From a virus, in the IMG/VR virus record IMGVR_UViG_3300045988_106519, positions 51,386-115,385 of that record: a stretch of DNA of 64,000 nucleotides; one strand, written 5' to 3'. The notes below the pieces were generated by a model, which searched no databases, was not told the origin of the DNA, and was given only the letters and a program-made list of their open reading frames with translations. Position numbers and translations under genes: made by a program. Shown piece after piece: positions 15,642 through 64,000 of the stretch. How positions within the stretch are numbered: the stretch's first letter is position 1; each line of letters begins with the position of its first letter.

Positions 15642-15642
15642 G

Positions 15643-16748: not shown

Positions 16749-16766
16749 ACTTAAAGAAAGGAAGAT

Positions 16767-17381: not shown

Positions 17382-17742
17382 AATATTGTTTGAAGCATTG
17401 TCTAAATATTTTCATGCCTTAGAGTTAAGAGGATATATGTCAAAGAGTCACAGTATAAAACTGTTAGTATTAAGTTTCTATAGAGACTTTGTATTCCATG
17501 ACTATCGAGGTATGTTGAGTGAGAAAGAGTATTGTTTTATAGAGAAAGCTTTAGATTGTATCTATGGAACAAGTTGTTTAATACCTTATCCAGATTATTT
17601 GAAAATGGGAAAACTACATTTAGGAGAAATGACAGAAATGGCTCAGAGGTTGAAGACTCTTGAGAATACAGAAGTTGTAAAGGTGATACATGAGGCTGAA
17701 GCAGACACTCAGTCAGATGTTATGGTTGTAATGGAAGAGTAA
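17374..17742 (+). CDS. hypothetical protein (122 aa)
   Basis: The first ATG is at 17374 (the track start at 17365 is GTG). Overlaps the upstream stop by 8 nt. Confidence 0.55.
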   Translation: MDEILFEALSKYFHALELRGYMSKSHSIKLLVLSFYRDFVFHDYRGMLSEKEYCFIEKALDCIYGTSCLIPYPDYLKMGKLHLGEMTEMAQRLKTLENTEVVKVIHEAEADTQSDVMVVMEE

Positions 17743-38500: not shown

Positions 38501-41500
38501 ATGGAGAGAGTCCTTTCAGTGAAGAAGAGATAAGCAATCTTCTTTCACAATACTATGCTGCAAACCCAGACTTAGACCAAAGTGAGTATAATTCACAGAA
38601 AGTATTATACACCATTGCACAGAATGCACAGAAGCTACAAGAAGCATCAGAAGCCTTTGACAAGGCAGAAGGTGAGATTCAGAAGATAGAGAAAAATAGA
38701 GGTGAAGCCATAGATCCAGAGGTGAGAACAAAGATGAAAATTCAGCAAGCACTCAATGGACATTGGGAAGAAAGAAAACAAAAAATGCAGTCAGAGATAG
38801 ACGATGCTTCAACAAGTGAGCAAACACATGATGCAAGTACAATCATAGCAAGTGTTGGAGGTATAGACAATGCCAAAGCACTTGTTAAAGTATATGATAA
38901 ACAGAAAGCTGAGATAGAAAAAGAACTTACAGAACAACAGAAAAGAACAAAGACTTTTGATGAAGAATACAAAAATGCAACAGAAGAATTGAACACTGCA
39001 AGAAGTAATGAAGATAGTGAGGCAGTACTTAAAGCAGAGAAAAAACAAAGAGAGACTAAAGCAAGGCTTGATTCATCAAAGGAGCAGGAGAATTATCTTG
39101 AAAGACTTGTTTCAATGACTGAAGACAAGAAGAAATCTTTGGAAGAGAACTTTACAGATGTTAGTGCAAAGATACTAACTGCTGATGAAATATTTGCACT
39201 TGACCCAGTGACAAGGGCAAGGATGGTGAATAAAGATAATAGAGAACTGTATAGCAAAGAACAGCAAAGAGAAATAGAGAAACTTGAGCAGAGGCTTATT
39301 ATGAGAGATGCTGATGCTCTTCAGAAAATACAAGACATAGCACTGTTGACACAAAGAATAGATTCTAATAAGGATGCTTATAGTAGAATGGCACAGAATC
39401 CAGAGGCAGCAGCAGTTTCCTTGGAGGCTCAAAGATTACAGTCAGCTGAAGCTGCATATAAACTGATAGGTCAGAGGAATGCAGAGACTGTTGCAGACTT
39501 TATCAATAAATTTGATGAAGGACTAAAGAACCGTTCTGATATATCTGAAGATAGTAAGAAGAACTATGTATTCAGAACATTAAGAAAACTCAATACAGGA
39601 CTGCTTGATATTATAGATGAAGACTCCATGCTTCCTAAATATCAGCAGCAGGTAGTTGATGCAAAGGAATGGGGTAAAGTTGTTGAGGATATTGTTTCTA
39701 TAATCAGTCAGTCAGACAAGGGAGAAGATTGGCAAAATAATATATTGAAGAATATAGACACAATAGTAGAAAATGCCAACAATAAAGAAGAGATTATGTC
39801 AGCTCTTGAGAAAGTTGTAGATGATACAGAAGGTTCAGAATCATCGAAAGACTTTGAATATATCCTTGATGGTATGAGGAAGTTAGGTTATCTGAGAGAT
39901 GCTACTATTATTGAGAATAGAAAACAAAGGAAGCAACGTGAAGCAGAGGAAGCAAAGAAGAAGGAAGAAGAAAAGAATAAAGTAGATGAGGCTGCAAAGA
40001 ATGCTGCTGAGAAAAAGACTGTTGAAGAGAAGGAGAAGCAACAGAATGAAGAAGGAATGGATATGGGTAGAAAACCAAATAAAAATGATGTTATAAATAG
40101 CACAGAAGATGTAGATATATTTGGTGATGAAAAGCCTTCAGAGGAGCAAAGTAAAGAAGAAGTAGGAGAAAAGCAGAGTGCTACAGCACCTGTTACTCAG
40201 AATATAAGAACTATCTTGAGTGATGGGTCTGGGGATAGGAGTGTTACAGCAGGAGATATGTGGCATGGTACAAAGGGTAATGCTAAGAAAGGAAAGTTCA
40301 CTGTGACAAAGATGGGAGATACTGTAACCTTTGATACAGATGAGAAGAATGATGTGCTGAGTGTTACTTCTGATGAATATGATGTAACTCCTGAGACTAA
40401 GGAGCATGAGGAAAATGCAGTGTTTGAGGCAAGTTCTATGGAGAAAAGAGGTGATGATTGGTATTTTGTTGGTAATTTTGCAGGAACCAAAAATACTACA
40501 GAAGTGAAAGCAAAGAAATCTTTTGACATAGAAAAGGCAATAAAAAGACAGCAGGAATCAAGGGAAGCAGAACTTGCAGCCAAGGGAGTAGATGTTGATA
40601 ATGTGAATGTTGTTGACAATGGGGATAGTGTGCAAGGTAGATCTGAGAATATTGATGAACAGAATAATAACATTACTCCTGATGATAAGGTGATAGAGGT
40701 GTCGGAGATTAATGAAGATGCTGATGAATTGAATGGTATAGGAGAGCATAATATAGAGACAAATGTTAATACTATTAGTGGTAATGCAATGAGTAGATAT
40801 GAGTCTGATCCATTAGCGAAGGATGGTAAACTTGTTAATAAAAAAGGCAAGGATGATAGAAAGCAGATGGATGAATATTATGCTTGGATGGATGCAGCTG
40901 GAATAAAGTTGCAGAATATTATTGACAGAGAACTTGCAAAAATACTAAAGAGAAATCCTAATGCCAAGGTGAAGTTTATGGCAGTGAGACCAGAAAGCAA
41001 TGCTACTAATGATAGCAGTATGCAGAGACACTTAATGCTTGTATTAGACTATGACAATAGTATTAATAAAGGAATTACTGCAATACACAACGATGATAAT
41101 GGTGGAGTGATAGAGAGTCAAGGAAAGAAGTATCTTGTGATAGGAGTTGCTGGTTATAGGAATGGAAACTTTGCGCAACAGTCACTCTATAATGTGTTAT
41201 GGAATCCTATATCTCCTACTTCAAGAAACAGTAAGGGAGAACCATTTGGATTGATGATAAAGCCTAAAAAGGAGTTCTTTGAGACACATCCTAATGAAAG
41301 ATTCTATGTGAATGAGAGTCTAAGTACTGAGATAGTGCCATATTCTTTGATACCAGGGTATATTGTTAAGCAGGGATTGAATGACAGTAATACAGAGTTC
41401 AGGAGTGTAAGAGAACTACTTGCTGACAAGGAGAGAAATCCTATGGGATATGATATGCAAAGTGTAGCATGGGGAATACAAGAATTGACAAAGTTCTTGA

Positions 41501-42867
41501 CTATAGGGGCTTTTGTAGATGATGTAATGGTTCCAAGGAATACTATAAGGAATGCAGGAAGTGCTTTTGTGCTTATGCCAGCAAGTAATGGAAAGATGGT
41601 ACCATCCTACTTGAAAGTGTTGAAGTATAATGAGATGAGAGATGGTGCATTAAAAGACAAAGTAGAAGGATTATTACAAAATGTTGTATCTCCAGACTAT
41701 GCAACAAGGTATCAGGCAGTGATAGATTTGAGTAATATCTTCTATTTTGATAAGGAAGGTGACACCATATTGCTTAGGAAAAACAAAGCAGAGTTATCAT
41801 TGGTGCATGATGGAATAGTGCAGAAGACATTTGTTCTTGACAGTAACTTTGACAGAGCAGAGTTTATGAAGGCAATGGAAGATATGAATCCAAGAATTAA
41901 TATTACTGCAAGAGTACTACAAAGTCAAGAGTTACTTAAAGAGTATGATGAAGTAGGAGCACTTATGACAGATGCAGCAATGTTTGGTACAGCAGGAAGT
42001 TCTTATAGTATTTATGGACTTGATGGTGAAGGCAATATATTGAAACCAAAACAGCCTGTGAATGAAGCTTCTAAGACTACTGTTAATAGTGATTTTAAGA
42101 ATGAGAATAAAAGTCAGGTGATATATAAGCACCAATATTACACTTATAGAGTGGATGATAGAATGTATTATCTTAATGGAGAGCCTGTCACTGATGAAAA
42201 GATGATAAAGCAGTTGGAGTATAACAAGATGATTATAAACAATCAGCTTAGTCCTATCAAGAATGAAGGAGTATGGGAATACTTTATTTTGAAAGAAGGA
42301 GAACATCCAGAGGCTATAAAGGTGAATAGAAATACTAAAGAAGTAAAGGAAGTAAGTGAGGAAAAGGTTAAGGAGATTATTAGTAAGATAGAAGAAGAGA
42401 AAGCCAAGAAGCAGAGAGAAGCTGAGGCACAGAAGCAACTGAAGATAATAAACTCTGAAGATGTAGATATTATAGGAAATTCTGATAATACAAACCTTGT
42501 GATGGATCCAAACACTGGAGAAATGGTTGTAAATAATACTGTTGATGAAACACCTGTTCCCAAAGAAGAAAACAAGAATGAAAACAAAAAAGAAGAAATA
42601 AAGAAAGAATCTAAGAGTGAGAAGAATAATAAGAAGACTGAGAGTAGTGACAATGCTACATCAACACAAACCTTTGCAGAACTTATAGGGAATAAGAAAC
42701 ATAGGATAAGTATAATAAAGTTGGTTAAAGGTAAATGGAAAGATGCTCCAGTTGTTCCTACCCAGCTTGAAAAGTTCTTGAGAGATAGAGATGTGGAGGT
42801 AGATAGTATTGGAACATCAGAGAAAGATATTGATGCTTGGATGAAGACAATAGAAGATTGTAGGTAA
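35506..42867 (+). CDS. giant coiled-coil-rich hypothetical virion/ejection protein (2453 aa)
   Basis: Uninterrupted ORF. It has a Gly/Ala hydrophobic patch (GVGILGKSLSTASKVGKVARGFGKV...GTAGALGIAYAYG), long K/E/Q helical regions, and no DxDxD polymerase motif seen. Confidence 0.4.
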   Translation: MPINKPQGLKGLQGLGGLSKTQYDSFIEKNRNLISQHGYDPTYINNLYSNKQFIDRYGVEKFKAMPNIDMRNAMYKDDVVNTEFSRLYSPFDVDGVRNNNRGLGADFEKYNQLSTDAKLKLMESNYLTPNEFNNKWERHIKEINDRGKVLGQSRAGAFMPLSAVLNAPAAESSTGSASVDFLRGISGDEAGRKLALDKNNRILEKIYNDDVDNAASKFASQVADAYYGSEIATMSDTQVKKAFVQAINGNPRKGDLGIPELASHYGNGTENQITSEMQDFSIDDMRQVLAKKRVYDAYMSPDMAMTALNNDAKRYIRDHQGSVKRFGLFLKDVGISSMSYTADKLNGIAEIYRMGQDAWAEKPIVMVDDKGNILDPKKIKVISDKQGRLHYQDKDGQLHSVHQEQVDYTTLHNMGKNPDGSDIEGAFGVDWMTLNPQYWTRAEQYGTLDDNEQKQYEKLGSSPYKVAYNPNEDSDIMYEAFKMMSFGIADAASQLIPYGVGILGKSLSTASKVGKVARGFGKVLDTTGKMLTAETKIGQVTQGTAGALGIAYAYGRGAFQETLQQNLANAEEAAQTASRNDIYNQYNSDKDYKAGVDKLINARAASMKADYLAKIQKDSNMKVIDKNTLDKMIHARAQEAVLGELVQNRIKERMASKEYADLQQKAIDGAGDAAFNSFLTEGIKYGFVNNFGYRKYLYTNPAGLSKKVSSTFKGLEEITTKEGRQRLTAGASKFLTRDQKLKEFGKTLGSQAWGGAWTNGTDDMQVDAAERINEDSFKRYLDAYQNGEAIADIYGFADGLYSYMKGLSNSMGQETTWNAALVGGLGSIVNFTPNFANIARLATKEGREAYNNNFTRRIVRDENGIPVKNEDGSIKYEDLKRTDNWRERANYFIQNGVLNTYYGKKQSERDLQSHADYVNDLLDSYNDFKDIEGLVASNGASENLESQGDAKTLQFIKALHSINALNRLGENSNDPTTLSSVVQNAKNFIAKASQLNDENGESPFSEEEISNLLSQYYAANPDLDQSEYNSQKVLYTIAQNAQKLQEASEAFDKAEGEIQKIEKNRGEAIDPEVRTKMKIQQALNGHWEERKQKMQSEIDDASTSEQTHDASTIIASVGGIDNAKALVKVYDKQKAEIEKELTEQQKRTKTFDEEYKNATEELNTARSNEDSEAVLKAEKKQRETKARLDSSKEQENYLERLVSMTEDKKKSLEENFTDVSAKILTADEIFALDPVTRARMVNKDNRELYSKEQQREIEKLEQRLIMRDADALQKIQDIALLTQRIDSNKDAYSRMAQNPEAAAVSLEAQRLQSAEAAYKLIGQRNAETVADFINKFDEGLKNRSDISEDSKKNYVFRTLRKLNTGLLDIIDEDSMLPKYQQQVVDAKEWGKVVEDIVSIISQSDKGEDWQNNILKNIDTIVENANNKEEIMSALEKVVDDTEGSESSKDFEYILDGMRKLGYLRDATIIENRKQRKQREAEEAKKKEEEKNKVDEAAKNAAEKKTVEEKEKQQNEEGMDMGRKPNKNDVINSTEDVDIFGDEKPSEEQSKEEVGEKQSATAPVTQNIRTILSDGSGDRSVTAGDMWHGTKGNAKKGKFTVTKMGDTVTFDTDEKNDVLSVTSDEYDVTPETKEHEENAVFEASSMEKRGDDWYFVGNFAGTKNTTEVKAKKSFDIEKAIKRQQESREAELAAKGVDVDNVNVVDNGDSVQGRSENIDEQNNNITPDDKVIEVSEINEDADELNGIGEHNIETNVNTISGNAMSRYESDPLAKDGKLVNKKGKDDRKQMDEYYAWMDAAGIKLQNIIDRELAKILKRNPNAKVKFMAVRPESNATNDSSMQRHLMLVLDYDNSINKGITAIHNDDNGGVIESQGKKYLVIGVAGYRNGNFAQQSLYNVLWNPISPTSRNSKGEPFGLMIKPKKEFFETHPNERFYVNESLSTEIVPYSLIPGYIVKQGLNDSNTEFRSVRELLADKERNPMGYDMQSVAWGIQELTKFLTIGAFVDDVMVPRNTIRNAGSAFVLMPASNGKMVPSYLKVLKYNEMRDGALKDKVEGLLQNVVSPDYATRYQAVIDLSNIFYFDKEGDTILLRKNKAELSLVHDGIVQKTFVLDSNFDRAEFMKAMEDMNPRINITARVLQSQELLKEYDEVGALMTDAAMFGTAGSSYSIYGLDGEGNILKPKQPVNEASKTTVNSDFKNENKSQVIYKHQYYTYRVDDRMYYLNGEPVTDEKMIKQLEYNKMIINNQLSPIKNEGVWEYFILKEGEHPEAIKVNRNTKEVKEVSEEKVKEIISKIEEEKAKKQREAEAQKQLKIINSEDVDIIGNSDNTNLVMDPNTGEMVVNNTVDETPVPKEENKNENKKEEIKKESKSEKNNKKTESSDNATSTQTFAELIGNKKHRISIIKLVKGKWKDAPVVPTQLEKFLRDRDVEVDSIGTSEKDIDAWMKTIEDCR

Positions 42868-47039: not shown

Positions 47040-48026
47040 CTAAGTTTTATTTGTTGAGTCTTTAGCTTTATTTAGTAACACCATAAGAGAAGTTCTTAAA
47101 TCATCTTGTTTTACAAGATTAAGTTTCTTTCTAATATGAGTGCGTTGGCTTGTGATATTAGAAGGAGTTTTGTGAAGGGTGAAACATATTTCTTTTAAGG
47201 ACTTACCAATAAGAATGAGTTTACAGATTTCTACTTCTGAGGGTGTGAGGGATGGACAGATTGAGAGAAGGTTGATTGTTTCTATATACTGCTTATGGTA
47301 GTAATCTTTAATGTTATTGAGGAGTTCTTCTTGATGAGTAGAAGACAGTCTTGATAGGAGAGAATAGACTTTCTCCTTATCAGACTCATTAAGGTTGATA
47401 AGCATGTCAATAGCAGACTGTTCTTCTTTGGTGATTCTGTCGGGGAGACGAAGACCTTTGGTGGCATTCTTAGAGTCGAAGATTATGACATAGAGAATGA
47501 ACATATAACCAACAAAGAAGACTCGCATGACTCTAAAGATGTGGTGGAGAGGAGAAGTGATGCAGAAGATGATGAGACAGATGGTTAGGATTGTTGTTAT
47601 GATGGTAGCCAACTTATTTAGACGCACAGCTATGGATATTGAGGCAAGGATGAGGATGATAGTGAAGTTACCAAGAATGTGGGTACCATAAGCACCCTCT
47701 GTAGATAATTCGTAAAGAGATTCTGCTGATAGCTTTATAGCAATAGCAGTAAAGAAGATGTAGACAGATGCTTTGGTGGAAAGAGTGTTAGTCCAGAAAA
47801 GAATCTGTAGGATAATGACAAAGATAAGGTGAAGCCAGTTGTAGGTATCAAAGATGGTGGAATGATGGTAGTCATTAAGACCAAGAATGTTTGCAGGAAT
47901 ATAAAAAAGTTCTACAAAAGTAGTGAAAAGGAAACACACAAATTGTCTGCGCTCCTGAAGACCACAGTAATAAGGATACTTGAAGTGTTCAAGCTTACTT
48001 ATAAAATTAAAGAAAAATGTTGTCAT
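47040..48026 (-). CDS. multi-pass membrane protein with C-terminal LuxR/GerE-type HTH (328 aa)
   Basis: About 6 hydrophobic helices in aa 25-185. The C-terminus LTPSEVEICKLILIGKSLKEICFTLHKTPSNITSQRTHIRKKLNL matches the LuxR-family HTH pattern. Confidence 0.65.
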   Translation of the reverse strand: MTTFFFNFISKLEHFKYPYYCGLQERRQFVCFLFTTFVELFYIPANILGLNDYHHSTIFDTYNWLHLIFVIILQILFWTNTLSTKASVYIFFTAIAIKLSAESLYELSTEGAYGTHILGNFTIILILASISIAVRLNKLATIITTILTICLIIFCITSPLHHIFRVMRVFFVGYMFILYVIIFDSKNATKGLRLPDRITKEEQSAIDMLINLNESDKEKVYSLLSRLSSTHQEELLNNIKDYYHKQYIETINLLSICPSLTPSEVEICKLILIGKSLKEICFTLHKTPSNITSQRTHIRKKLNLVKQDDLRTSLMVLLNKAKDSTNKT

Positions 48027-51777: not shown

Positions 51778-54168
51778 ATGGCTTATAATGCAATAGGAGG
51801 TTTCCCACCACAACAGCTTTCTTTTAATAAGAAAGGAAAGAAGTGGAGAGCTAAATGTGTAGATTTTGGAGATGACCATAGCTTGATGCACTATCATCTT
51901 ACAAGAAAATCAGTAAGAGCAATGAAAATAAACTATGACTTACTGAATGGAAGAATACACATGGATGACTTAAAAGTTATAGTGAACCCTTATAATATAG
52001 AGGCATCCTTTATACCAGAGAATATACAACACTATCCAGTTATAAATTCAAAACTTGAAGTTCTTAGAGGAGAAGAGTCAAAGAGAACTTTTGACTTTAA
52101 AGTGATTGTGACTAATCCAAATGCTGTGTCAGAGATAGAAGAAGAGAAGAATCTACAAGTAAATGCAATGCTTCAACAGCTTGTGATGGATGGTTCTATG
52201 GATGAGGAAAGCTTTAACAGAGAAATGGAGAAACAGGCAGACTACTTTACTTATGAATACCAAGACAAAAGAGAAGTAAGAGGAAATCTGCTGCTTAATC
52301 ACTATATGAAGGAGCTTGAAATGTCACAACTCTTTAATAAGGGATTTGTAGATGCTTATACCGTAGGAGAAGAAGCTTATATATGTGATATAGTCGGAGG
52401 AGAGCCATACTTGGAAAAGATAAATCCTCTGAAGATGAGAGTAATAAAGTCAGGAGCTTCATCATATATAGAAGATGCAGACATGATAGTGTTGGAAGAC
52501 TATTGGAATCCAGGAAGAGTAATAGATACTTTTTGGGACCAACTATCTAAGAAAGATATTGAAGCATTGGAAAACACAAGAAGTAGTACAGGAAGTAGTC
52601 CTTATGCAGACAGTATGGATAATATAGATAGCAGATATGGTTTTATACCTAATGTAAATTTGTCAACTGCTGGAGATGAAGTTATAGATTCATATAGTTT
52701 GTTTGATAATGAGGATGATACATCTTATCTGCCCTATGACATGAATGGAAATGTAAGAGTATTGAGAGTTTATTGGAAGTCAAGGAGACAGATAAAAAAA
52801 GTGAAAAGTTATGACCCTGAAACAGGAGAAGAAGAATTTAACTTTTATCCTGAGACCTATCACAGTAACCCAGACAAAGGAGAAGAGGAACAGACATTTT
52901 GGATTAATGAGGCATGGGAAGGAACAAAGATTGGAGCAGATATATATGTGAACATGAGACCAAGACCAGTGCAATATAACAGATTGAGCAATCCATCAAG
53001 ATGTCACTTTGGTATTGTGGGAAGTATATATAACCTTAATGGTGATGAACCATATTCATTGGTAGATATAATGAAACCATATTCTTACCTATATGATATA
53101 TTTCATGATAGACTTAATAAAGTACTTGCAAAGAATATGGGAAAGATAGTTAGAATGGACCTTGCAAAAACACCAAAAGGATGGGATGCAGATAAATGGT
53201 TGTATTATATTAATGTGAATGGTGTTTCAGTAGAAGATAGCTTCAAGGAAGGCAGTGTAGGTATGGCAACTGGTAAGCTTGCAGGAGCAATGAACAATGC
53301 TTCATCAGGAGTTATAGATGCTTCTTTGGGTAATGAGATACAACAATACATAAATGTGCTTGAATGGATTTCAACAAAGATAGGAGAGCTTGCTGGAATA
53401 TCAAAGCAGAGAGAAGGACAGATTAGTAATAGAGAGACTGTTGGAGGTGTAGAAAGAGCAACACTACAATCGTCACTCATTACAGAAAGACTCTTCTTTA
53501 CCCATGACAGTGTGAAGAAGAGAGTACTGGAATGTTTCTTGGAGACAGCAAAGATAGCTATAAGAGGCAGGAAGAAGAAGTTTGACTATATATTGAATGA
53601 TGGAAGTAAGAAACTTGTTGAGATAGATGGTGATGAATTTGCAGAGTGTGACTATGGAATAGTAGTGGATAACAGCAATGGTACTATGGAACTTAACCAG
53701 AAACTTGATACACTGGCACAGGCAGCACTTCAGAATCAGTTGCTTGACTTCTCTTCAATAATGAAGCTCTATACTACAACAAGTGTTGCAGAAAAGCAGA
53801 GAATGGTTGAGGCTAATGAGAGAAGGAAGAGGGAAGAAGCATTGCAACAGCAGCAACAGGCACAACAGATGCAGCAAGCACAGTTACAGCAGCAACAGCA
53901 GATTGCACAGATGAAGGCAGAGCAGGAATATAAGATGCACCAAGAAGATAATGAGGTGAAGATATTGGTTGCTCAAATAAATTCTAAGGCTGAAGCTGAT
54001 AGGATGTCTATCATGAATAATGATGCAGCTGATACTGCTACACTTGAAAGAGAAAAACTATCAGAGAATGCAAGACAATTTAATGAAAATCTTGCTCTGC
54101 AAAAGAAGAAGCAAGCTGATGATGTGAGGATTCAAGAGAAAAAAGTGAATGCAGCATTGAAGAAATAA
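51778..54168 (+). CDS. portal protein candidate (796 aa)
   Basis: Size fits. Q-rich C-terminal coiled coil (QQQQQAQQMQQAQLQQQQQIAQMK) like barrel-bearing podovirus portals. Has GISKQREGQ-type loops, an AGGAG RBS, and its own promoter and terminator. Confidence 0.6.
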   Translation: MAYNAIGGFPPQQLSFNKKGKKWRAKCVDFGDDHSLMHYHLTRKSVRAMKINYDLLNGRIHMDDLKVIVNPYNIEASFIPENIQHYPVINSKLEVLRGEESKRTFDFKVIVTNPNAVSEIEEEKNLQVNAMLQQLVMDGSMDEESFNREMEKQADYFTYEYQDKREVRGNLLLNHYMKELEMSQLFNKGFVDAYTVGEEAYICDIVGGEPYLEKINPLKMRVIKSGASSYIEDADMIVLEDYWNPGRVIDTFWDQLSKKDIEALENTRSSTGSSPYADSMDNIDSRYGFIPNVNLSTAGDEVIDSYSLFDNEDDTSYLPYDMNGNVRVLRVYWKSRRQIKKVKSYDPETGEEEFNFYPETYHSNPDKGEEEQTFWINEAWEGTKIGADIYVNMRPRPVQYNRLSNPSRCHFGIVGSIYNLNGDEPYSLVDIMKPYSYLYDIFHDRLNKVLAKNMGKIVRMDLAKTPKGWDADKWLYYINVNGVSVEDSFKEGSVGMATGKLAGAMNNASSGVIDASLGNEIQQYINVLEWISTKIGELAGISKQREGQISNRETVGGVERATLQSSLITERLFFTHDSVKKRVLECFLETAKIAIRGRKKKFDYILNDGSKKLVEIDGDEFAECDYGIVVDNSNGTMELNQKLDTLAQAALQNQLLDFSSIMKLYTTTSVAEKQRMVEANERRKREEALQQQQQAQQMQQAQLQQQQQIAQMKAEQEYKMHQEDNEVKILVAQINSKAEADRMSIMNNDAADTATLEREKLSENARQFNENLALQKKKQADDVRIQEKKVNAALKK

Positions 54169-54823: not shown

Positions 54824-55702
54824 ATGAAAGCAGGTAAATTACAATATGATAATGAAGGAAGTCTTGATGTTTCAGATTGGAGTGATTTGTCTATCTCTGA
54901 TAAAGCTGAAATGATGAAGGTTGCTATTGCTAATGGTATTACTACATTACCTGAGATAAGGAGATCTTATAATGAGTTTGCTAAGGGAGGAAAGATGAAT
55001 ACTTCACAAGGATATCGTCCCTCAGACAGTATAAAGAAGAGGATAGCTAATTGGGAGGGAAGCTCTATGAGGACAAATAGAAGTTTTGAGGATGAGGCAA
55101 GAGACTTTAACAGAGTAATTCCTTCTGAGGTGAGAGACAGGTTGACTCAACAACAGAAAGATGCTTTGTATTCTTATGGATATAATGTAGGTATGGGAAG
55201 GTTGAAGGAAAGGGTTGTACCAATACTAACTGCTTATACAGAAGGTAAAGCTTCAAAGGAGGATGTGCAGAGAGCTATGTGGGCTTCAAGAGATAATGAG
55301 CTAAGAGGACTTACTACAAGAAGAAATGCTGAAAGAGAGATGTTCGGAGGAAATTATAGAACCAAGTTTACTGGTACTGGAAAGCTTGGAATACATGTAG
55401 ACCCTTCAGAATATACTATACCATCTAATTACTTCAATAACTTCAATGCAGAGATAACATTACCTCAGATGCAAATGCCTAATGGTATGGATGTAGATCC
55501 AGAGACACTTTATAAAGCTCCTGTTATTGATGAAACATTGTTTGAGAAGTCTGCTGAGCCAATGGAAGAGATTACTTATAATCCTCAAGAGGATAAGATG
55601 GAAGGAATAAGGAGACTTGGAAATGTGCTTGGGATGATGGGGGATAATAGTGTGAATAATTCATTGGGAATATTGGATTATGTAGGAAGGATATATTCAT
55701 AA
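54824..55702 (+). CDS. GH24 (lambda/P22-type) lysozyme-like protein with N- and C-terminal extensions (292 aa)
   Basis: IANWEG (catalytic Glu context), LTQQQKDALYSYGYNVG (compare P22 gp19 LNQNQYDALCSLIFNIG) and GLTTRRNAEREMF (compare LLPRRRRERALF). Confidence 0.55.
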   Translation: MKAGKLQYDNEGSLDVSDWSDLSISDKAEMMKVAIANGITTLPEIRRSYNEFAKGGKMNTSQGYRPSDSIKKRIANWEGSSMRTNRSFEDEARDFNRVIPSEVRDRLTQQQKDALYSYGYNVGMGRLKERVVPILTAYTEGKASKEDVQRAMWASRDNELRGLTTRRNAEREMFGGNYRTKFTGTGKLGIHVDPSEYTIPSNYFNNFNAEITLPQMQMPNGMDVDPETLYKAPVIDETLFEKSAEPMEEITYNPQEDKMEGIRRLGNVLGMMGDNSVNNSLGILDYVGRIYS

Positions 55703-55720
55703 GATAGGTAAATGTTGGAA

Positions 55721-55754
55721 AGAAAAAAGGGAGGTAGTGACACCTCCCTTTCTT
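55721..55754. terminator. bidirectional rho-independent terminator
   Basis: 9-bp stem AAGGGAGGT/ACCTCCCTT. An A-run lies on the left (a U-run for the minus-strand giant gene) and TCTTGTT on the right. Confidence 0.7.
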
Positions 55755-55755
55755 G

Positions 55756-58700
55756 TTAGCAATATTTGTGGAACTCATCAATAGCCTCATCCTCATTGAG
55801 GTCAAGACCTTTGTGCTTAAAGACCTTTTGAAGGAACTTACGGAACATCTTTTCTTTGTCCTTGATTTCCAAAGCAAGTTTTTCAGCACCTTCATGATCA
55901 AGCTTAGGATTCTGAAGCATAATCAAGTCAGCAATAGCAGAAAGATTCTTGACTTCCTCTGTCTTAGTGATGACTGGAGTTTTGACAGATTCTTCAGCAC
56001 TTAACTCTTGATGACTTTCAGTCTTTAAGTCTGTGGCAGACTCCTGTACAGTAGCTGTGATTTTATTCTCAGAAACACTTGAAGTGTCGCTTAAAGGATT
56101 GACAATCTCAGAAGTACTAATCTCAAGATACTCACCATTATTACCAAGAGGTTTTACTCTCTTAAAAGTAAGCTCATTTGGAGAAGAAGTTTCAAGATGC
56201 CAGAGATAAGTCTCCTTACCTACTTTTGTCTTCATGTAGGAGACATCTGTAAGATCAGCTATTTCTTCTGGTCTGTATACTCTAAGTTCACCAGTCTTGA
56301 GATTGACATTATAGTGAGTATCCTTACCACCTTTCCATGGAACAAGTTTAGTGTTATCCCAATTATTGCGGATGAATTGATTAATCACCAACTTAGGAAC
56401 AACAGTAGGGAAGTGTCTATAAGTGTCAACATAAGAAGCACCAGTATTTTCATTCATCAATCTTTCCTTGACATAAGTAGGAACCAATGCCATGAAAGTC
56501 TTAGGAGAAAAACCAATGCCAGCACGGAAGAAACTATAGTCAAACAACATCTTAGAGAGCTTAGGGTCAGCCTTATGAAGGTCAATCCAAGCACTACGAA
56601 GTTCCTCCTTACGCTGTTCATCCATACCAGTGATATTAATTGTAAGATAAGGATGTCCTGTCTTCTTAGAAACATTCATCCTAATGGCTTGAATAAGCTC
56701 ATTATTAGGAAATTCATCCTTGAAGTTCTGCTCCATAAACCACTTAGGGAATGCTGTTGCATAGTCCTTGAGATTCTTAGAGTCAATAACCCCAGACTGT
56801 ACAAGAAGATAAGACTGATAGAAGTTAGAGAACTGGTCAAGTAATTTCTTATCACCATACATCTTGTCAGCAATATCCTTTGGCAACTTAGCAAGCAAGT
56901 TTCTGAATCCAACACTGCCAGCAGGCATGTCAGAGAACAGAGACTTAGCTATATCAACAGTTCTTGCAAACTGCTTCAAGACAGGATGGTCAAAGAATAT
57001 GTCATCAATATCCACAGGAACATCATCAGCAGTGTAGAAGTGAGTACCATTATCAGTATTGGCATCAATAAACTGAGACATTTTGTGCTCAATTATAAGA
57101 TTGTCAATGATGAGTGGACCAACAGCACTGGAGATAGAATTGAATCTTGTAGCATAAGTAGGCTTACGCATAGCATCAGTAAGACTTCTCATCTTTTGGA
57201 AAGCAAGCAGTACTTTATAATCAGTAGCTTCATGCTCCTCAGAAGTAAGACCATTAACAAGTTCCTCAGTAGAAAGAGGTTCAGTGTTGATATTAGAAGA
57301 GTCACTGATATTATACTTCTGACGATAAGTGTCAAGCCACTTATTGATGAGACCATCAAGAGACACATAGTTAGTAAGATTATCCCTATTGAACTGACTA
57401 AGCAGACGCTCTATAACATCCTGAGATAGGAAGAGAGCAGCATCATTGAAAGTCATACCCAATCTCAACATAGTATTAAGCATACCAGCAGTAGTCATAT
57501 TGACATTCATAAGATTGAGGATAGGATCTTTCACAGCATCAGCAGAAGCAGATACAAGAGAACCAAGAGTCTTACCAATAAGAGTACCTTCACGGTCATA
57601 CTTCTGGTCTATCTGCATTCTACCACCAAAGGTAGTGCCAGCAATAGTGAAATCATCATTACCACAAATCTCAGATACATCAAGGAATATGTCATTACTC
57701 TCAAGAGTAGCATGAGCTACTTTATTGACAGCAAACACACCAATCAATGATGCAGCAGCAGAGTTCTGCTTATAGAACTGAACCTGAGTATCAGCAAATG
57801 TAAGGTCTTTGTCAGTATAAGACAACTTCTTGAGTTCATCAATAGACATACCTTGAAGAGCATTCCAAGAGATACCCTTATTAGCAGGATTCTTATAGGC
57901 AGCAACCATGTATCCCATCTTCTTAGGAGCATCAAAGCCACCAGGATTAAGAATCTTGTCAGCAGTCATCTGATTGGTAAGAACAGCATAAGTCATATCA
58001 ATAATCTTGTTATCTCTATATGTTCTACCAAAAGTAGGAGCATCAGTATAGTAAGCAACTTGTTGATATTGACCATAAAGCCATTGCATAAACTTATCAG
58101 TAAACTTCATCTTCTGAGGATTGTCAAGGAACATTCTTACCTGCTCACCAATCCATTGGTTGTTAGTTTTACCATTATGAGCCTTAGCATAACTTTCAGA
58201 AGCTCTCTTAAAGAGTTCATTTTCAATATCCTTCCTTCTTTTAGTCTTAATAGGTATGTCTTTACGCATGACATAACGCTTATCAACATCAAAGTCAGAA
58301 TCATCAATCTCAGTAAGCTCATAAGGAAGCATAATAGCATCACCAGCTTCACGAGGCATAAAACCAACAACCTTCATAGGAGCACAAGAGTACTTATCCT
58401 CAGTAGGAATACGGTAGCTAACCATTTTAAGAAGTTCTGGATCAACAGCATTGATAGCATCAACATTGATAGAACCATCAGCATTAGAGAACTTGTCAAA
58501 AAGTTCATTAGACCATATAGGACAGAACACTTCAAAGTAAGCAATACCACCTTGATTCTTCTTAAGATAGTCTTTATAAGAAAGATCATCATGTTCAGAG
58601 GGAACATACTCCTCCTCAAGAGGAATGAGATTACCCTGCTTATCATTGAATCTAATGTGAAGCTGCTTAGAAGTACCAAAATTAGACACCTGAACAATAG

Positions 58701-61700
58701 GACCACCAGCAATCTTCTGCTTGTTAATTCTGTTCTTAATAACAGAATTTATAAGCTGTTCAATGCGTTTAGCCTGTATAGGGTCACCTTTAGGTATTCT
58801 AAATTCACCAGTCTCCTTATCAATAGAACAAGCCTGTACAAGGTCAATGCCATAACGAGGAGAAGATAAAACTTCTCTTTGAAGAATCTTAGAAAGAGCA
58901 ATATTTCTCTCACGCTTATCCTCACTATTCAAGTGAAGTTCAGCAGAAAGATTATTAATACTCTCTTCAATATTATCAGCAATAGTCTGCTCATACTCCT
59001 TACGGAACTCATCAGCCTTCATTCTCTTGACAGTACCATCAGGTTCAGTCCACTCATAGAAGTTATCCACTTGCTGACCATTCTCATCAATAGTGAAGAG
59101 GTCAAGGTCAGAGGGAGTAATCATTCTAATCTGAGAACCATGAGCCTGAGAATGCTCCTTGAAATGTTCAGGAACCTCCTGCTGAAGACAATAATCTTCA
59201 AAAGAAGTCTCATGTACAAAGGTATTAGTGTTATAGTTCTTATAAATTCTTTCACCTGTAGCATCAGTTTCTTCCTTGAAGATTTGATTCATCATAAAGG
59301 TATAGGCAGCATCCTCACCACCTTCCATATCTCTGAACTGATAGATATTCATCTTGCCTTGAAGACCAGACTTGATGGAAGATTCAAACTGAACAGTATC
59401 AATGCCTTTAGTAGGCATAAGACGTTCAGAGTCTTCCATTACTTTATAGACAGCTCTAAGAAGATTAGGACGAGAAAGCTTTTCACCTTTAAGGATAGCA
59501 TCAGCCATGATAAGAAGATACTCAGCATTCTTAGCTTGGAAAGGTACTTGCATACTGTGAATAGGAGCATTATCTACACCCATATCCTTAGTAAGTTTAG
59601 AATACACAAAAGGCTTGAGAGGCTGGAAAGCAGTCTCAAGGTCAGTATATGTGTATTCACCTTTAAGCATTTTTTGATAAATATCCTCAGCATGACGAGA
59701 CCATTTGCCAAAGATGTAAGCCTTCTTTCTGTAAGAAGAAGGAGAGGAATAGCCTTGAGCATCAGTGACATTAATATTAGTGTACTTACCATCCTTGCCA
59801 ACAAGAGACTCCTTGAGAGCAATCATTGCAGCCTTCTGATTGTCAGGGGCAGCAGCAATTCTGCGGTCAAATACCTCTGTGATATTAGCTATGATGTTAG
59901 ACTTGAAAGAATCAAAGTCTTGCAAGATGAAAGTTCTGTACTTACCATCAGACACTCTATTACCATCATAATCAATAGCGTTAATATTACCTCTGACACC
60001 AGGAGCATGAAGCTGAGCAAGACGTTTCTGCAAATCCTCAGTATCTTTGTAGAAAGCAATGTCAGAGAGAGTGAGTTGAAGAATATTCTTAGATGCAAAA
60101 GAATCATTCCAAAGGAAGTTCTCCACTTGCTTTCTAACCCAATCATTGATTACACCCTCTCTTTCCTCATTCTTTATGTTTGAAGAATTATCAAACTCAG
60201 AAGGATATATGTCCTTAATGTTCTTTGCAGCCTCAAGAATACCATTGCTTTCCCATGTATCAAGGATAGACTGTACTCTGTTCTCCATAGACTGACGGAT
60301 AACCCTTTCAGCAAGCTTACTAAGCTCAACCTCTTCATCAGGAGTAAGATTAATCTCACCATTGACCTTCTTCTGAAGAAGAGAAGCAAACCTATTATTG
60401 TCAGAAGATACAGAGCCATCCTCATTACGGAGAATAGTTCTCTTGGAAACAGCACTCTCTTCAAGATAGCTATTGAATACAGGAAGGAAGTTGAACTTAC
60501 GACCATTAGTATCAAAGTTCTTAATGAATCCAGGGTCATTCTTAGACATGTTTCTTCTAAGGACAGTCTGTATTCTACTAATCTCTTGTAGGAACATGTT
60601 ATGAAGACCATTAACAATAGCATTCTTATAACCGTCACCTCTATAAGAGTAGAACTTGATGAACTCAGAAGAAGGCTTATTAGATTGCATGGGCACTCTA
60701 TACCAAGCAGGAACTCTATCTTCAACTTTTGCACTCTCAGAGAAGTATTCAGTGATGAGAGAAAGAGTATATTCAGCATCACTCATATTGCGCATATAGT
60801 TATGCTTATTGAAGTTAAGCTCAACCTTATGGTCAAACACCTTACGAGCATTCTCATCTCTTGCAAGAAGTCTGAGCCACTCATTACGCCAACCCTTAGT
60901 AATATCACCATCACCAGCACCAAACTTAAACCATTCAGAAGAGCCATACTCATCAAGAATGAAATCCTCAAAAGCCTGACCTTCCTGACGGAACTTGTTA
61001 AAGAGCTTAGTCATGAATGAAGGAGTGACATAAGACTGATACATTTTACCACTATCATAGAAAGCATTGACAGCAGTATCCTCAAGCTTATCAGTAATAG
61101 GAGTGAGGAAGTTTTTCACAGAACCATCAATAGAATACTCACCTTTAAATTTGAAAGGATTGTACTTTTTAAGTTCTCCAGATTCTTGTTTCTGTAAAGC
61201 CTCATTTAAGTCATCTACCATAAACTTAAGATACTTTGTAATCTTGTGAATATTCTCAGCATTGACAACATCAGTAAGCAAGTCTTCAGTGACATTATAT
61301 CCTAAGACCTTACAAACAGCTATGATATTATCAGATGCAACCTTAGACATTTTATCATCAAGAGTATTGCCCTGCTTAATAGACTTATCTATATTCTGAA
61401 GTTCAGACAATGCCTTATGAAGAGTGAAGTCATTGCTAACAGAGTTAGCAGAACCAAGCAACTTAGTGTTAACCTTACCATTAATGCCAAAGAGAGGATG
61501 TTCTCCAATCTTGAATTGAGAAGTGATAGTATTCATCACATCTGTAAGAGCAGGATGACTATTAACAGCTATACTATGATACTTACCATCTTCAAGAAGA
61601 ACAACAGAGTAAGGTTGGAAATGCTTAGAGAACACTCCATAGAATTGGCTTTGGAAGTCAGTTTCACTACCACTCTTGTCAGACAATCTCTGAACAAGCT

Positions 61701-64000
61701 GAGAGAGCCAAGGGTTCTGAGACTGCTTGTCAGAGAGTTTCTTAACCATAGCATCAAGAGATAAGGAGCCTTGAGTCCAACGGAGAATACTATTTACAGC
61801 TTCACGAGGATTAACACGCTCTGCAATACCCCATTTACTCATAACCTTACTACTATCAGCATTAAGAAGATAACACTCATGAATGCCTTGTCTAACAAGA
61901 GCAGACATAGAGTTAAGAACATCAATAGTACGGTTTTCTATCTGCCAATGCTCTTGATCATCCTTCTCACCTTCCTCAGCAGCAATATCCTGGTCATTGG
62001 AATAGTCATTGAAGTTGTCATAGTCAATATAAGAATCACCAGTAGTAGTAAAGTTACCCTTAGAGAAATCCTTAGCAATACCAAAGCCTTCGTTCATAGC
62101 AAAGACATCAGCAGCAAGATACATGATAGCATCCCAGTTGTCAAAGATAAGGTCAGCTTGGAAACTGATACCATTTTCATCATCCTTATAGGAATCCCAG
62201 TTAGCTTCAGTATCAAATATAGACTTAACACTATCAATAAGACGGTTGATACCAACAGCCTCAACAATTTGCTTTCTTGAGGCAGATTGAAAGTCAAGGT
62301 CAGTCTTAAGGGTAGGGAATAGCTTTTCAGCAAGACCCTCTTCCTTTTGAAGCTTTGTTATTGAGTCAGAAATTTCATTGGCCACAAGTTCAGCAGTATG
62401 ACGAATCTCAGATGCAGAAAGATGTTCTATACCAAGTTCATCAAGATGATACACCTCACCATCAGACTCCAAGTCTTGATTGCCAAGAAGATTGTCAATC
62501 TGACGATTAAGTTTATCATACTCATCAAGAGTCTTTTCAACTTGCTTCTTTTCAGAGTTCTTAGACTCTTGAAGATACTCTTTTTCACTTGTAGATTGTA
62601 GAATGTTGTCCATGTGATTAATAATGTTTTGATTATCCTCTATAGAGTTTTCATCAGAGATTTGAGCATCAAGTTCCTTAAGATAAGGAATTTTCCAGGC
62701 AGCATCTACTGGTGTGTCCTCATAGAGGTCATTAAAGTATTCATAACTTGGAAGAAAAACTGTTGAAGGCTCTTCCTTAGTAGAGGTGGGAGGGGTGGTA
62801 GGTTTTGTAGGAGGTGTAGGGACAGTAGGGGTAGTGGGTTGAGTTTCTTTTGAAGGATTATCATAGAAATCTCCATCAATGACGTTGTATTGTCTTTCTC
62901 CATTGACAATCCTTACAAGCACATTCTGAGGCTTCAAGTCTTGTAGGAGATAGTCTTCTGTTTTGTAGGATGTGTTTCCTATGACAGAAGGGTCTTTTTC
63001 AGCATTAAACCTTTCTTTTACAAAAGAATCAATCTCTTCTTGAGAAGCATAAGCACCCTCCATAAAAGGTTGCTCAATAATAATAGAAAACTCATCATCA
63101 CCATTGCCAAAGCCTACAACTTTCATTGCAGTCTCAGGGAACAATGTATTGTGCAGTTCTATAGACCTTAGAGCATCAGAGACAGTATTGTAGCCAGTAA
63201 TACTGCGAGACTTGATAACAGTGTCTTTATCTTTTCTGTATACCCATGCCTCACTGCCATGACCAATTCTACCGCCATACTTCTTCTCTAATTTTGTGTC
63301 TACATTATCTGCCCATTTTCCTTGTTCCTTGGCGAATTTTTCAAGAGATTCTCTGTCTTCTTGGTTTCTTTTGTCGATGTCTTCCTGAGAGAGAACTCCT
63401 TGTTCCTGAGTTTCTCGTAGGTTTCCATCTCCTCTCTGGATTCTGGCTTGTGACTCAGCAAGTAATCCTCCATCGCTTGTCTGTTGTTTTCCTGCAACAG
63501 TTTCTGCATTTCTTGTATTGTTGCTTTCATTGTTTTCTGTTTTATTATTGGAACGTGAATTATCCTCTTTTATTGTAGTATCTTTGTGTAAAGGAGAACC
63601 TTCCTTCTTGACATTGTTAGACACAATGGTAACTGTGTCAGTGGCTCTGGAGACACCTACATATTCAAGCTGTTGCTTGAGATTGATAGTTTGAGTAGGT
63701 GCTGTATGTTTAGTGGGTTCAGTAAAAGATGTAGAGAAATTATTTGAAAATCCCAAATCAACATCTTCTGCATCTCCAGTGAAATTAGCACTTGAAGCTA
63801 CGTTATTATCTACTTCACCAAGGTCAACAACTTCCATAGCATTGTTACTATTAAGACCAGCTCTTGAAATGTCAACATCATCAATAAGAACATTGGTAAA
63901 GGTAGAGCCTTGAGACTTATGAACAGTCATGGCATAGCCAAAGTCAATGGTCTTAGCTTGAAGAAGGTTGTGATTACTGTCCTCAATATTATCGTTGACA
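55756..64000 (-). CDS. giant multidomain protein (>2,747 aa, N-terminus outside the window): SF1 helicase C-terminus + kinase-like core + beta-prime-like single-chain RNA polymerase
   Basis: The frame stays open from 64000 to the stop at 55756. Motifs seen: YAMTVHKSQGSTF / YVGVSRATDTVTIV (helicase); GHGSEAWV..VIK..DLKPQNVLV..DGDF (kinase-like); SYRIPTEDKYS...GDAIMLPYELTEIDDSDFDVDKRY (DPBB with DxDxD). Confidence 0.65.
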   Translation of the reverse strand, partial: VNDNIEDSNHNLLQAKTIDFGYAMTVHKSQGSTFTNVLIDDVDISRAGLNSNNAMEVVDLGEVDNNVASSANFTGDAEDVDLGFSNNFSTSFTEPTKHTAPTQTINLKQQLEYVGVSRATDTVTIVSNNVKKEGSPLHKDTTIKEDNSRSNNKTENNESNNTRNAETVAGKQQTSDGGLLAESQARIQRGDGNLRETQEQGVLSQEDIDKRNQEDRESLEKFAKEQGKWADNVDTKLEKKYGGRIGHGSEAWVYRKDKDTVIKSRSITGYNTVSDALRSIELHNTLFPETAMKVVGFGNGDDEFSIIIEQPFMEGAYASQEEIDSFVKERFNAEKDPSVIGNTSYKTEDYLLQDLKPQNVLVRIVNGERQYNVIDGDFYDNPSKETQPTTPTVPTPPTKPTTPPTSTKEEPSTVFLPSYEYFNDLYEDTPVDAAWKIPYLKELDAQISDENSIEDNQNIINHMDNILQSTSEKEYLQESKNSEKKQVEKTLDEYDKLNRQIDNLLGNQDLESDGEVYHLDELGIEHLSASEIRHTAELVANEISDSITKLQKEEGLAEKLFPTLKTDLDFQSASRKQIVEAVGINRLIDSVKSIFDTEANWDSYKDDENGISFQADLIFDNWDAIMYLAADVFAMNEGFGIAKDFSKGNFTTTGDSYIDYDNFNDYSNDQDIAAEEGEKDDQEHWQIENRTIDVLNSMSALVRQGIHECYLLNADSSKVMSKWGIAERVNPREAVNSILRWTQGSLSLDAMVKKLSDKQSQNPWLSQLVQRLSDKSGSETDFQSQFYGVFSKHFQPYSVVLLEDGKYHSIAVNSHPALTDVMNTITSQFKIGEHPLFGINGKVNTKLLGSANSVSNDFTLHKALSELQNIDKSIKQGNTLDDKMSKVASDNIIAVCKVLGYNVTEDLLTDVVNAENIHKITKYLKFMVDDLNEALQKQESGELKKYNPFKFKGEYSIDGSVKNFLTPITDKLEDTAVNAFYDSGKMYQSYVTPSFMTKLFNKFRQEGQAFEDFILDEYGSSEWFKFGAGDGDITKGWRNEWLRLLARDENARKVFDHKVELNFNKHNYMRNMSDAEYTLSLITEYFSESAKVEDRVPAWYRVPMQSNKPSSEFIKFYSYRGDGYKNAIVNGLHNMFLQEISRIQTVLRRNMSKNDPGFIKNFDTNGRKFNFLPVFNSYLEESAVSKRTILRNEDGSVSSDNNRFASLLQKKVNGEINLTPDEEVELSKLAERVIRQSMENRVQSILDTWESNGILEAAKNIKDIYPSEFDNSSNIKNEEREGVINDWVRKQVENFLWNDSFASKNILQLTLSDIAFYKDTEDLQKRLAQLHAPGVRGNINAIDYDGNRVSDGKYRTFILQDFDSFKSNIIANITEVFDRRIAAAPDNQKAAMIALKESLVGKDGKYTNINVTDAQGYSSPSSYRKKAYIFGKWSRHAEDIYQKMLKGEYTYTDLETAFQPLKPFVYSKLTKDMGVDNAPIHSMQVPFQAKNAEYLLIMADAILKGEKLSRPNLLRAVYKVMEDSERLMPTKGIDTVQFESSIKSGLQGKMNIYQFRDMEGGEDAAYTFMMNQIFKEETDATGERIYKNYNTNTFVHETSFEDYCLQQEVPEHFKEHSQAHGSQIRMITPSDLDLFTIDENGQQVDNFYEWTEPDGTVKRMKADEFRKEYEQTIADNIEESINNLSAELHLNSEDKRERNIALSKILQREVLSSPRYGIDLVQACSIDKETGEFRIPKGDPIQAKRIEQLINSVIKNRINKQKIAGGPIVQVSNFGTSKQLHIRFNDKQGNLIPLEEEYVPSEHDDLSYKDYLKKNQGGIAYFEVFCPIWSNELFDKFSNADGSINVDAINAVDPELLKMVSYRIPTEDKYSCAPMKVVGFMPREAGDAIMLPYELTEIDDSDFDVDKRYVMRKDIPIKTKRRKDIENELFKRASESYAKAHNGKTNNQWIGEQVRMFLDNPQKMKFTDKFMQWLYGQYQQVAYYTDAPTFGRTYRDNKIIDMTYAVLTNQMTADKILNPGGFDAPKKMGYMVAAYKNPANKGISWNALQGMSIDELKKLSYTDKDLTFADTQVQFYKQNSAAASLIGVFAVNKVAHATLESNDIFLDVSEICGNDDFTIAGTTFGGRMQIDQKYDREGTLIGKTLGSLVSASADAVKDPILNLMNVNMTTAGMLNTMLRLGMTFNDAALFLSQDVIERLLSQFNRDNLTNYVSLDGLINKWLDTYRQKYNISDSSNINTEPLSTEELVNGLTSEEHEATDYKVLLAFQKMRSLTDAMRKPTYATRFNSISSAVGPLIIDNLIIEHKMSQFIDANTDNGTHFYTADDVPVDIDDIFFDHPVLKQFARTVDIAKSLFSDMPAGSVGFRNLLAKLPKDIADKMYGDKKLLDQFSNFYQSYLLVQSGVIDSKNLKDYATAFPKWFMEQNFKDEFPNNELIQAIRMNVSKKTGHPYLTINITGMDEQRKEELRSAWIDLHKADPKLSKMLFDYSFFRAGIGFSPKTFMALVPTYVKERLMNENTGASYVDTYRHFPTVVPKLVINQFIRNNWDNTKLVPWKGGKDTHYNVNLKTGELRVYRPEEIADLTDVSYMKTKVGKETYLWHLETSSPNELTFKRVKPLGNNGEYLEISTSEIVNPLSDTSSVSENKITATVQESATDLKTESHQELSAEESVKTPVITKTEEVKNLSAIADLIMLQNPKLDHEGAEKLALEIKDKEKMFRKFLQKVFKHKGLDLNEDEAIDEFHKYC

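Follow-up and report, generated by a model that had tools for sequence, protein, structure and literature searches.

Truncated protein kinases were described in 2017 by Iyer, Burroughs, Anand, de Souza, and Aravind as a module of the polyvalent proteins of phages and conjugative elements (PMC5512222). This family, Kinase-PolyVal (PF18762), is included in the PKinase clan of Pfam (survey in PMC9758233). [quoted passage not shown] By analogy with gp0.7 of phage T7, the family kinases were proposed to phosphorylate host proteins, and the fusion of a host-modifying ADP-ribosyltransferase (ART) to an N4-like virion RNA polymerase was stated in the same work (PMC5512222). The phi14:2-type RNA polymerase (RNAP) is part of the virion and moves in with the DNA (PMC7886860). 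Here we report on a 64,000-nucleotide stretch of viral DNA, positions 51,386 to 115,385 of IMG/VR record IMGVR_UViG_3300045988_106519 (the window), in which a giant open reading frame (ORF) on the minus strand joins a Kinase-PolyVal domain to a crAss-type virion RNAP.

The kinase of the window shares with the described family the whole-profile match, the loss of the C-lobe, the hallmark Glu and Gln, and the catalytic Asp, Asn, and Asp. The setting is also the same, namely, giant proteins of Bacteroidota phages with ART-PolyVal, helicase, and a probable zincin; what differs from the members treated in PMC5512222 is the partner, which here is a two-barrel crAss-type polymerase. The polymerase part resembles the crAss-like virion RNAPs (phi14:2 gp66, PDB 6VR4; crAss001) in its C-terminal homology, its DFDVD motif, and the presence of muzzle, cargo, and portal genes nearby. 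However, the 6VR4 chain has 2,194 residues, whereas complete relatives of the window protein have 3,943 to 4,269 amino acids (aa), and at least a helicase and a kinase stand ahead of the polymerase in the window protein. N4-like virion polymerases, with their ART, lysozyme, PBECR, and zincin fusions, follow the same logic, in which an early-gene polymerase and host modifiers arrive together, but the N4-like polymerase is unrelated (T7-like single subunit rather than two barrel), and no kinase fusion has been reported for it. T7 gp0.7 is likewise a phage Ser/Thr takeover kinase, targeting host RNA polymerase, RNase III, and translation factors; in contrast to the kinase of the window, it is a separate early protein that is made after infection, is neither virion delivered nor fused to a polymerase, and does not belong to PF18762. 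T4 Alt is likewise packaged in the virion, injected with the DNA, and active in modifying host RNA polymerase, and an ART-PolyVal domain fills the neighboring slot in relatives of the window protein. Alt nevertheless differs from the window kinase in chemistry and fold, and it is a separate protein.

Only N4-like polymerases, and no crAss-like phages or crAss-type polymerase, appear in PMC5512222, and a protein kinase in the transcription block goes unmentioned in the main text of a large survey of crAss-like genomes (PMC7886860). No paper in the searched literature links Kinase-PolyVal or PF18762 to crAss-like phages. The kinase family and the polyvalent concept are not new, both having been published in 2017 and the family being in Pfam, and no new category is proposed here. 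An earlier note on this DNA had seen in a kinase attached to a phage RNAP a new way to couple takeover of the host to phage transcription; this novelty is anticipated by the described family and by the ART/N4-like polymerase precedent (PMC5512222). What is added here, and is apparently unreported, is the pairing of Kinase-PolyVal with a crAss-type polymerase, the variety of its arrangements (N-terminal, C-terminal, internal, and duplicated), and the exchange of effector slots. In the human gut, crAss-like phages rank with the most abundant viruses, and the means by which they take over Bacteroidota are largely unknown. A polymerase that by homology is injected and that carries a conserved, apparently active kinase would offer a handle on the first seconds of infection, and the truncated kinase is a natural test of how little of the kinase fold catalysis needs.

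Kinase domain of the giant ORF

The giant ORF (55756 to 64000, minus strand) has 2,747 visible codons, ends with a stop codon at 55756 to 55758, and is open at the window end. The Kinase-PolyVal module, consisting of conserved N-terminal helices and the truncated kinase core, occupies 62860 to 63450 (minus strand, as do all features of this ORF given below). Within it, PF18762 matches at 62863 to 63363 with an E value of 1.3e-29 (bit score, 103.7, with a Pfam gathering cutoff of 27 bits; model positions 2 to 157 of 160). The earlier note had placed a kinase at 62866 to 63264, and one does lie there, but the Pfam match extends more widely. With a 12-sequence profile (the window kinase and 11 close homologues), 1,377 homologous cluster representatives were recovered at an E value of ≤0.001 among 1.84 billion proteins, and all of the family features listed in PMC5512222 are found in the window kinase. 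By homology, then, the region is a Kinase-PolyVal domain, a monophyletic, C-lobe-less offshoot of the Ser/Thr/Tyr protein kinase superfamily, and as judged from its alignment it keeps the residues for ATP binding and phosphotransfer.

Residues of the kinase are numbered here from the Met codon at 63930, as in the earlier note. The motifs that the note had listed, G223-H-G-S-E-A-W-V (223 to 230), VIK240, IIIEQ287PF, LQD331LKPQN336VLV, and VID352GDF, are all found in the sequence at those positions, and their conservation was counted over 186 domain copies from 157 cluster representatives. In the nucleotide-binding loop G225-S-E227 (63250 to 63258), G225 is kept in 97% and E227 in 98%, whereas G223, which had been named as the hallmark of the Gly loop, is kept in only 28%. 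The ATP-anchoring lysine of strand β3, K240 of VIK (63211 to 63213; codon checked), is kept in 96% and N261 in 99%, and Q287 in the last N-lobe strand (63070 to 63072) is found in all copies covering it (178/178; 100%). D331 and N336 of the catalytic loop D331-L-K-P-Q-N336 (62923 to 62940) are each present in 163 of 164 (99%), as is the metal-binding, DFG-equivalent Asp, D352 (62875 to 62877), in 129 of 130 (99%), with the domain ending about 5 residues further on. Retention of K240, D331, N336, and D352 in homologues, on which the earlier note had made its kinase assignment depend, thus ranges from 96 to 99%. The glutamate of its "acidic helix" (E258, in ALRSIELH) fared differently, since E258 is not conserved among the copies; the usual acidic position of the family is 255, which is Asp or Glu in 76% and Arg in the window. 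In a 47-sequence alignment (A2) reaching down to 28% identity, E227, K240, N261, Q287, D331, N336, and D352 are invariant.

Compared with the 77%-identical relative L007, the ratio of nonsynonymous to synonymous substitution rates (dN/dS) was 0.10 for the kinase core, 0.11 for the polymerase, and 0.19 to 0.29 for the linkers, all of which are approximate values because dS is near saturation. The value of 0.29 was obtained over aa 61 to 183 of the visible protein, which comprise the helicase end and the linker between helicase and kinase. By this measure, the kinase is under strong purifying selection.

A Pro/Thr-rich linker (62761 to 62859; QPTTPTVPTPPTKPTTPPTSTKEEP; model pLDDT, <50) begins 6 residues past D352, and stand-alone homologues stop 3 to 10 residues past IDGDFY. 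The canonical Pkinase profile (PF00069) gave no match to the kinase domain, which ends after the DFG-equivalent Asp, even at E values up to 10. A sequence search of the PDB, with the single domain and with the 12-sequence profile, likewise returned nothing at E values up to 10, so that sequence alone gives no link from the domain to solved kinases, and no family in PHROGs matched the kinase segment. When the family alignment was compared with CDK2 by hhalign (with a manually entered CDK2 sequence), only the 17-residue catalytic loop was aligned, EDYLLQDLKPQNVLVRI with HRVLHRDLKPQNLLINT, an alignment that pairs D331 and N336 of the window with D127 and N132 of CDK2.

A kinase-like fold is predicted for the domain. 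The first of two AlphaFold2 models, with 235 residues, had a pLDDT of 81 overall and of >90 across most of the core, and a trimmed model of 148 residues, based on 47 sequences, reached a pLDDT of 95.1 and a pTM of 0.88. The elements of the trimmed model follow the order β1 to β3, helix, β4 and β5, helix, and β6 to β9, as in a kinase N-lobe to which the catalytic-loop and metal-binding strands are added, and no C-lobe helix follows the DFG-equivalent Asp or the last strand. In a fold search of the PDB with Foldseek, the best 50 matches for each of the two models all belonged to the kinase superfamily, with TM scores of only 0.34 to 0.52 among the best 50 for the trimmed model. For the trimmed model, the best matches were NleH2 and NleH1 (TM scores, 0.52 and 0.48; probability, 1.00), followed by CK1, ULK3, Wee1, NEK7, CDK2, and a few APH(2'') structures. 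NleH1, NleH2, and SteC (PDB 4LRJ, 4LRK, 4O96, and 8JBI) contain the minimal kinase domains of type III effectors; those of NleH1 and NleH2, at about 160 residues, are the closest solved structures and likewise belong to delivered effectors, but their identity to the window kinase is just 16 to 18%, the root mean square deviation (rmsd) is about 6 Å, and the route of delivery is another one. These modest fold scores mark the domain as a distant, reduced relative of solved kinases. NleH presumably keeps C-lobe helices after the DFG motif, whereas the window kinase stops right there. Among the predicted viral structures of BFVD, the best three matches were PolyVal-type kinases (TM scores, 0.72 to 0.77; E values down to 3e-8), one of which is named "PolyVal Serine/Threonine/Tyrosine Kinase." The profile and structure comparisons that the earlier note had called for, together with the conservation counts, bear out its reading of a minimal Hanks-superfamily kinase in which the N-lobe, the catalytic loop, and the Mg-binding Asp are kept. 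Its view that the domain gives way to a Pro/Thr linker where a canonical C-lobe would follow agrees with the model, which has no helices past the DFG position, and with the lack of a Pkinase match.

Downstream of the linker, the rest of the giant ORF (55759 to 62760) is a predicted crAss-type virion RNAP region. The C-terminal ~2,270 residues are homologous to chain A of PDB 6VR4, the DNA-dependent RNA polymerase of phi14:2 (phmmer; E value, 5.7e-19), with the matching stretch at about 56425 to 58983 and the catalytic DFDVD motif located at 58282 to 58296. By tblastn, the RNAP region matches the "putative RNA polymerase" of crAss001 (E value, 2e-111) and many other Crassvirales; 123 crAss-like or Flavobacterium/Cellulophaga phage records match it, and its best GenBank relative is cr116_1 (Steigviridae; 47.8% identity). 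The 6VR4 and crAss001 matches lie in the same ORF as the kinase, which supports the covalent joining of a kinase to a phage RNAP claimed in the earlier note. By homology, the giant ORF thus encodes, in a crAss-like phage, a virion RNA polymerase protein of the polyvalent type.

Relatives of the giant protein and distribution of the kinase

No stop codon interrupts the giant ORF frame up to base 64000. The Met at 63930, counted as residue 1 in the earlier note, lies within KTIDFGYA-MTVHKSQGSTF, the classic last motif of superfamily 1 (SF1) helicases. Because the frame remains open and the helicase motif spans this Met, the residue is internal and the true start is outside the window, so that the earlier numbering does not count from the start of the protein. 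The first residue visible in the window aligns to residue 1199 of the complete 3,943-aa ORF of L007, and the RNAP parts of the two are 72% identical; over 2,713 aa, the giant protein is 55% identical to P0020 (4,269 aa). Judging by these relatives, about 1,200 N-terminal aa are outside the window, and the complete protein is of some 3,900 to 4,300 aa.

The L007 ORF encodes ART-PolyVal (aa 455 to 575), the helicase (aa 806 to 1242), Kinase-PolyVal (aa 1406 to 1571), and then the polymerase. In the IMG/VR locus L006, which has ~96% DNA identity to window positions 55699 to 64000, the protein contains a second, divergent Kinase-PolyVal (aa 390 to 598; L006 positions 6965 to 7591), the SF1 helicase (aa 682 to 1115), the orthologous kinase (aa 1373 to 1601), and then the polymerase. 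As these domain matches indicate, the effector slot upstream of the helicase is swapped between close relatives, being occupied by ART-PolyVal in L007 but by a second kinase in L006, and the window phage itself probably has two kinases. P0020 carries the helicase and two adjacent kinase copies. In the more distant relative cr116_1 (L001), gp051 has an ART-PolyVal domain at aa 248 to 376 in its N-terminal extension, and a kinase was not detected in gp051.

A further element, an HExxH segment (ILLHEVxHxxSMYALSN) near the N terminus, is conserved at aa ~232 of L006, aa ~231 of L007, and aa ~635 of L001. It shows weak SprT-like Pfam similarity (E values, 0.05 to 0.09), and the region may represent a zincin peptidase module of the sort fused to N4-like virion polymerases. 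In close relatives, the predicted module order is thus the HExxH region, a slot for ART-PolyVal or a second kinase, the SF1 helicase, a linker, the kinase, the Pro/Thr linker, and the two-barrel virion RNA polymerase. Because the module makeup differs among the relatives, the window protein is a textbook "polyvalent protein" with variable effector slots. L006 has, in addition, an extra in-frame module of ~150 aa between helicase and kinase (L006 positions 9412 to 9888, compared with window positions ~63563 to 63592; ANKFIGFADGIFNSSTGKYAQQAG…VVFVSIPGKRG). Neither this module nor the N-terminal 390 aa gave a significant Pfam match, the weak SprT-like hint being the only one.

The Pro/Thr linker is the most divergent stretch in the comparison with L006, with 81 to 85% nucleotide identity and gaps. 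A faster divergence of the kinase than of the polymerase from L006, which would have pointed to mosaicism and was considered on the basis of an "86%" figure, was rejected: nucleotide identity within the kinase core is 96 to 99%, and it is in the Pro/Thr linker that the two diverge.

A single-base indel at L006 position ~12748 (window ~60600 to 60720) splits the giant gene of that locus into overlapping ORFs at 5798 to 13264 and 12748 to 17682. The window ORF has no such break, which in L006 may reflect either an error of assembly or a true frameshift. The polymerase of cr116_1 is also split, in that case by an inserted gene, gp050.

Kinase-PolyVal and a crAss-type polymerase occur together in 9 of the 157 representatives. 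The kinase is N-terminal to the polymerase in seven of the nine. In P0082, kinases are C-terminal (aa 2534 to 2747 and aa 2848 to 3015, with the polymerase at aa 488 to 2254), and in P0068 the kinase (aa 1254 to 1473) lies inside the polymerase, between segments at aa 379 to 1212 and aa 1584 to 2029. The linkage was also found at three IMG/VR loci, and the fusion thus recurs in metagenomes; at one such locus, L008, the kinase is 35% and the polymerase 65% identical to those of the window. Most of the large family members are without a polymerase (39 of the 48 representatives of ≥1,500 aa), and the closest homologues of the window kinase (52 to 61% identity) are stand-alone proteins of 208 to 409 aa that, on the contigs examined, sit among bacterial chromosomal genes.

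The variable position of the kinase, its occurrence without a polymerase, and the stand-alone copies argue that it is a portable effector module and not a polymerase-specific accessory. The kinase is not specific to the polymerase, most family members being found in polymerase-free giant proteins or on their own. Nor does the polymerase need a kinase, since many crAss-like polymerases, among them those of cr116_1 and crAss001-like phages, have none that is detectable. A tblastn search with three diverse Kinase-PolyVal queries found nothing in 50,697 GenBank phage records, crAss001 included, and megablast of the giant gene against GenBank phages gave no match.

Some contigs with kinases of this family have further features. 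The stand-alone kinase of L005 (7171 to 7911) shares its contig with a Bacteroidota-type GldD lipoprotein. L003 (4440 to 6073) and L004 (1204 to 2838) each have a tandem kinase pair with a 71-aa ORF between the copies, and an integrase is near that of L004. The single kinase copy of L002 (9490 to 10719), next to a DDE transposase, runs on into a segment with HExxH and resembles a fragment of a polyvalent protein.

Proposed role of the kinase

Putative delivery by the virion is suggested by the match of the polymerase to 6VR4 and by the crAss muzzle, cargo, and portal genes in the window. The reading that we favor, and regard as fairly likely, is that the kinase enters as a co-injected effector and, early in infection, phosphorylates host proteins. 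By homology, the polymerase portion would be packaged into the virion, leave it along with the DNA on ejection, and transcribe early genes, and the kinase, as part of the same polypeptide, would already be in the cytoplasm of the host at time zero, with no need for gene expression. There it would use ATP on proteins, most likely the host transcription or translation machinery or defense factors, and the outcome would be a blocked defense or an aided takeover, the latter akin to those involving T7 gp0.7 and T4 Alt. The kinase would in this way act as a general co-delivered effector and not as a regulator dedicated to the polymerase, and the peptidase module may set the modules free. More tentatively, and with distinctly less confidence, we suggest that a crAss-like gut phage lineage may inject one giant protein in which the virion RNAP is tethered to one or two C-lobe-less kinases, an SF1 helicase, a probable peptidase, and, in some members, an ART, the kinase acting on host transcription, translation, or defense proteins at the site where phage transcription starts. 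If this is true, it would provide the first enzymatically characterized Kinase-PolyVal, the first kinase delivered by a virion polymerase, and a protein kinase that works without a C-lobe.

Several observations weigh against a co-injected, protein-phosphorylating effector. The fold scores against solved kinases are modest (E value, ~4e-3; TM score, ~0.5; rmsd, ~6 Å). On the predicted αC helix, none of the acidic residues is invariant among the 186 domain copies, and a conserved glutamate to partner K240 was not found there. The αF-to-αI scaffold that organizes the catalytic and regulatory spines of canonical kinases is absent, so that activity of the domain alone is not assured. The literature searched contained no assay of a PF18762 member. 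Two further points, the residue at position 333 and the presence of APH(2'') structures among the fold matches, concern the nature of the substrate and are taken up below.

One alternative is that the kinase acts in cis, phosphorylating the giant protein (its polymerase or its linkers) or co-packaged cargo, and thereby steers refolding once ejected, polymerase activity, or the early-to-middle transcription switch. This would accord with the covalent link between kinase and polymerase in at least nine divergent representatives and the three IMG/VR loci, with the location of the kinase inside the polymerase in P0068, and with the Ser/Thr-rich linkers that flank the kinase and are possible substrates. 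Yet the family is found mostly in polymerase-free giant proteins or stand-alone in Bacteroidota chromosomes, the position of the kinase relative to the polymerase varies, and many crAss-like polymerases (cr116_1 and crAss001-like) are without a detectable kinase; on balance, we hold action in cis to be unlikely.

To about the same degree, we doubt that the domain is a phosphotransferase for a nonprotein substrate, such as a small molecule, a nucleotide messenger in defense, or an envelope lipid or sugar, in the manner of aminoglycoside, Kdo, and choline kinases. It is on this point that position 333 (D-L-x-P-x-N) matters, because there the family has His (45%) more often than Lys (21%), giving a consensus of D-L-H-P-x-N in place of D-L-K-P-x-N; APH(2'') structures stand at ranks 12, 17, and 46 of the fold matches, and the domain lacks the C-lobe elements by which peptide substrates are bound. 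The window, however, has Lys at position 333, and its loop D-L-K-P-Q-N is as in Ser/Thr kinases and aligns with that of CDK2. The best and most complete fold matches are the protein kinases NleH, ULK3, CK1, and CDK2, and the authors who described the family judged the retained core to be closer to protein kinases (PMC5512222).

A dead remnant, or pseudokinase, with only a nucleotide-binding, scaffolding, or packaging role is quite improbable, even though the entire C-terminal subdomain is gone and a conserved αC glutamate is missing. Pseudokinases usually lose at least one of the catalytic residues considered here, whereas all four are kept in 96 to 99% of the family and the dN/dS of the kinase core is 0.10. 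Chance resemblance of short kinase-like motifs in a long protein, for which just the shortness of the individual motifs could be cited, is refuted by the profile E value of 1e-29, the 1,377 homologous representatives, and the confident kinase-like model.

Other features of the giant ORF and the window

The C-terminal end of an SF1 (Dda/Pif1/RecD-like) helicase makes up the first ~127 visible residues of the giant ORF (63619 to 64000), with the motifs ...TVHKSQGSTF... and ...YVGVSRATDTVTIV. Pfam UvrD_C_2 matches at aa 21 to 46 of the visible protein (63862 to 63939; E value, 3.3e-7), and the Dda-like helicase family PHROG 325 matches the helicase end with an E value of 2e-13; in relatives of the giant protein, a full AAA_30/PIF1 helicase is present upstream. 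The helicase is followed by a low-complexity linker, rich in Asn, Ser, and Glu by its sequence, which leads to the kinase (63451 to 63618; aa 128 to 183 of the visible protein). The Pro/Thr linker on the other side of the kinase may be a flexible tether or a region of cleavage or phosphorylation. The plus-strand ORFs that overlap the kinase region are short (43 and 110 aa) and were taken as shadows of the 2,747-codon frame.

Elsewhere in the window, two other giant ORFs (31412 to 35308 and 35506 to 42867) had no Pfam match. The neighboring genes include those for the crAss muzzle (19944 to 24230), cargo protein 1 (24302 to 27640), the portal (51778 to 54168), a lysozyme (54824 to 55702, plus strand), and a LuxR/GerE-type helix-turn-helix protein (47040 to 48026, minus strand).

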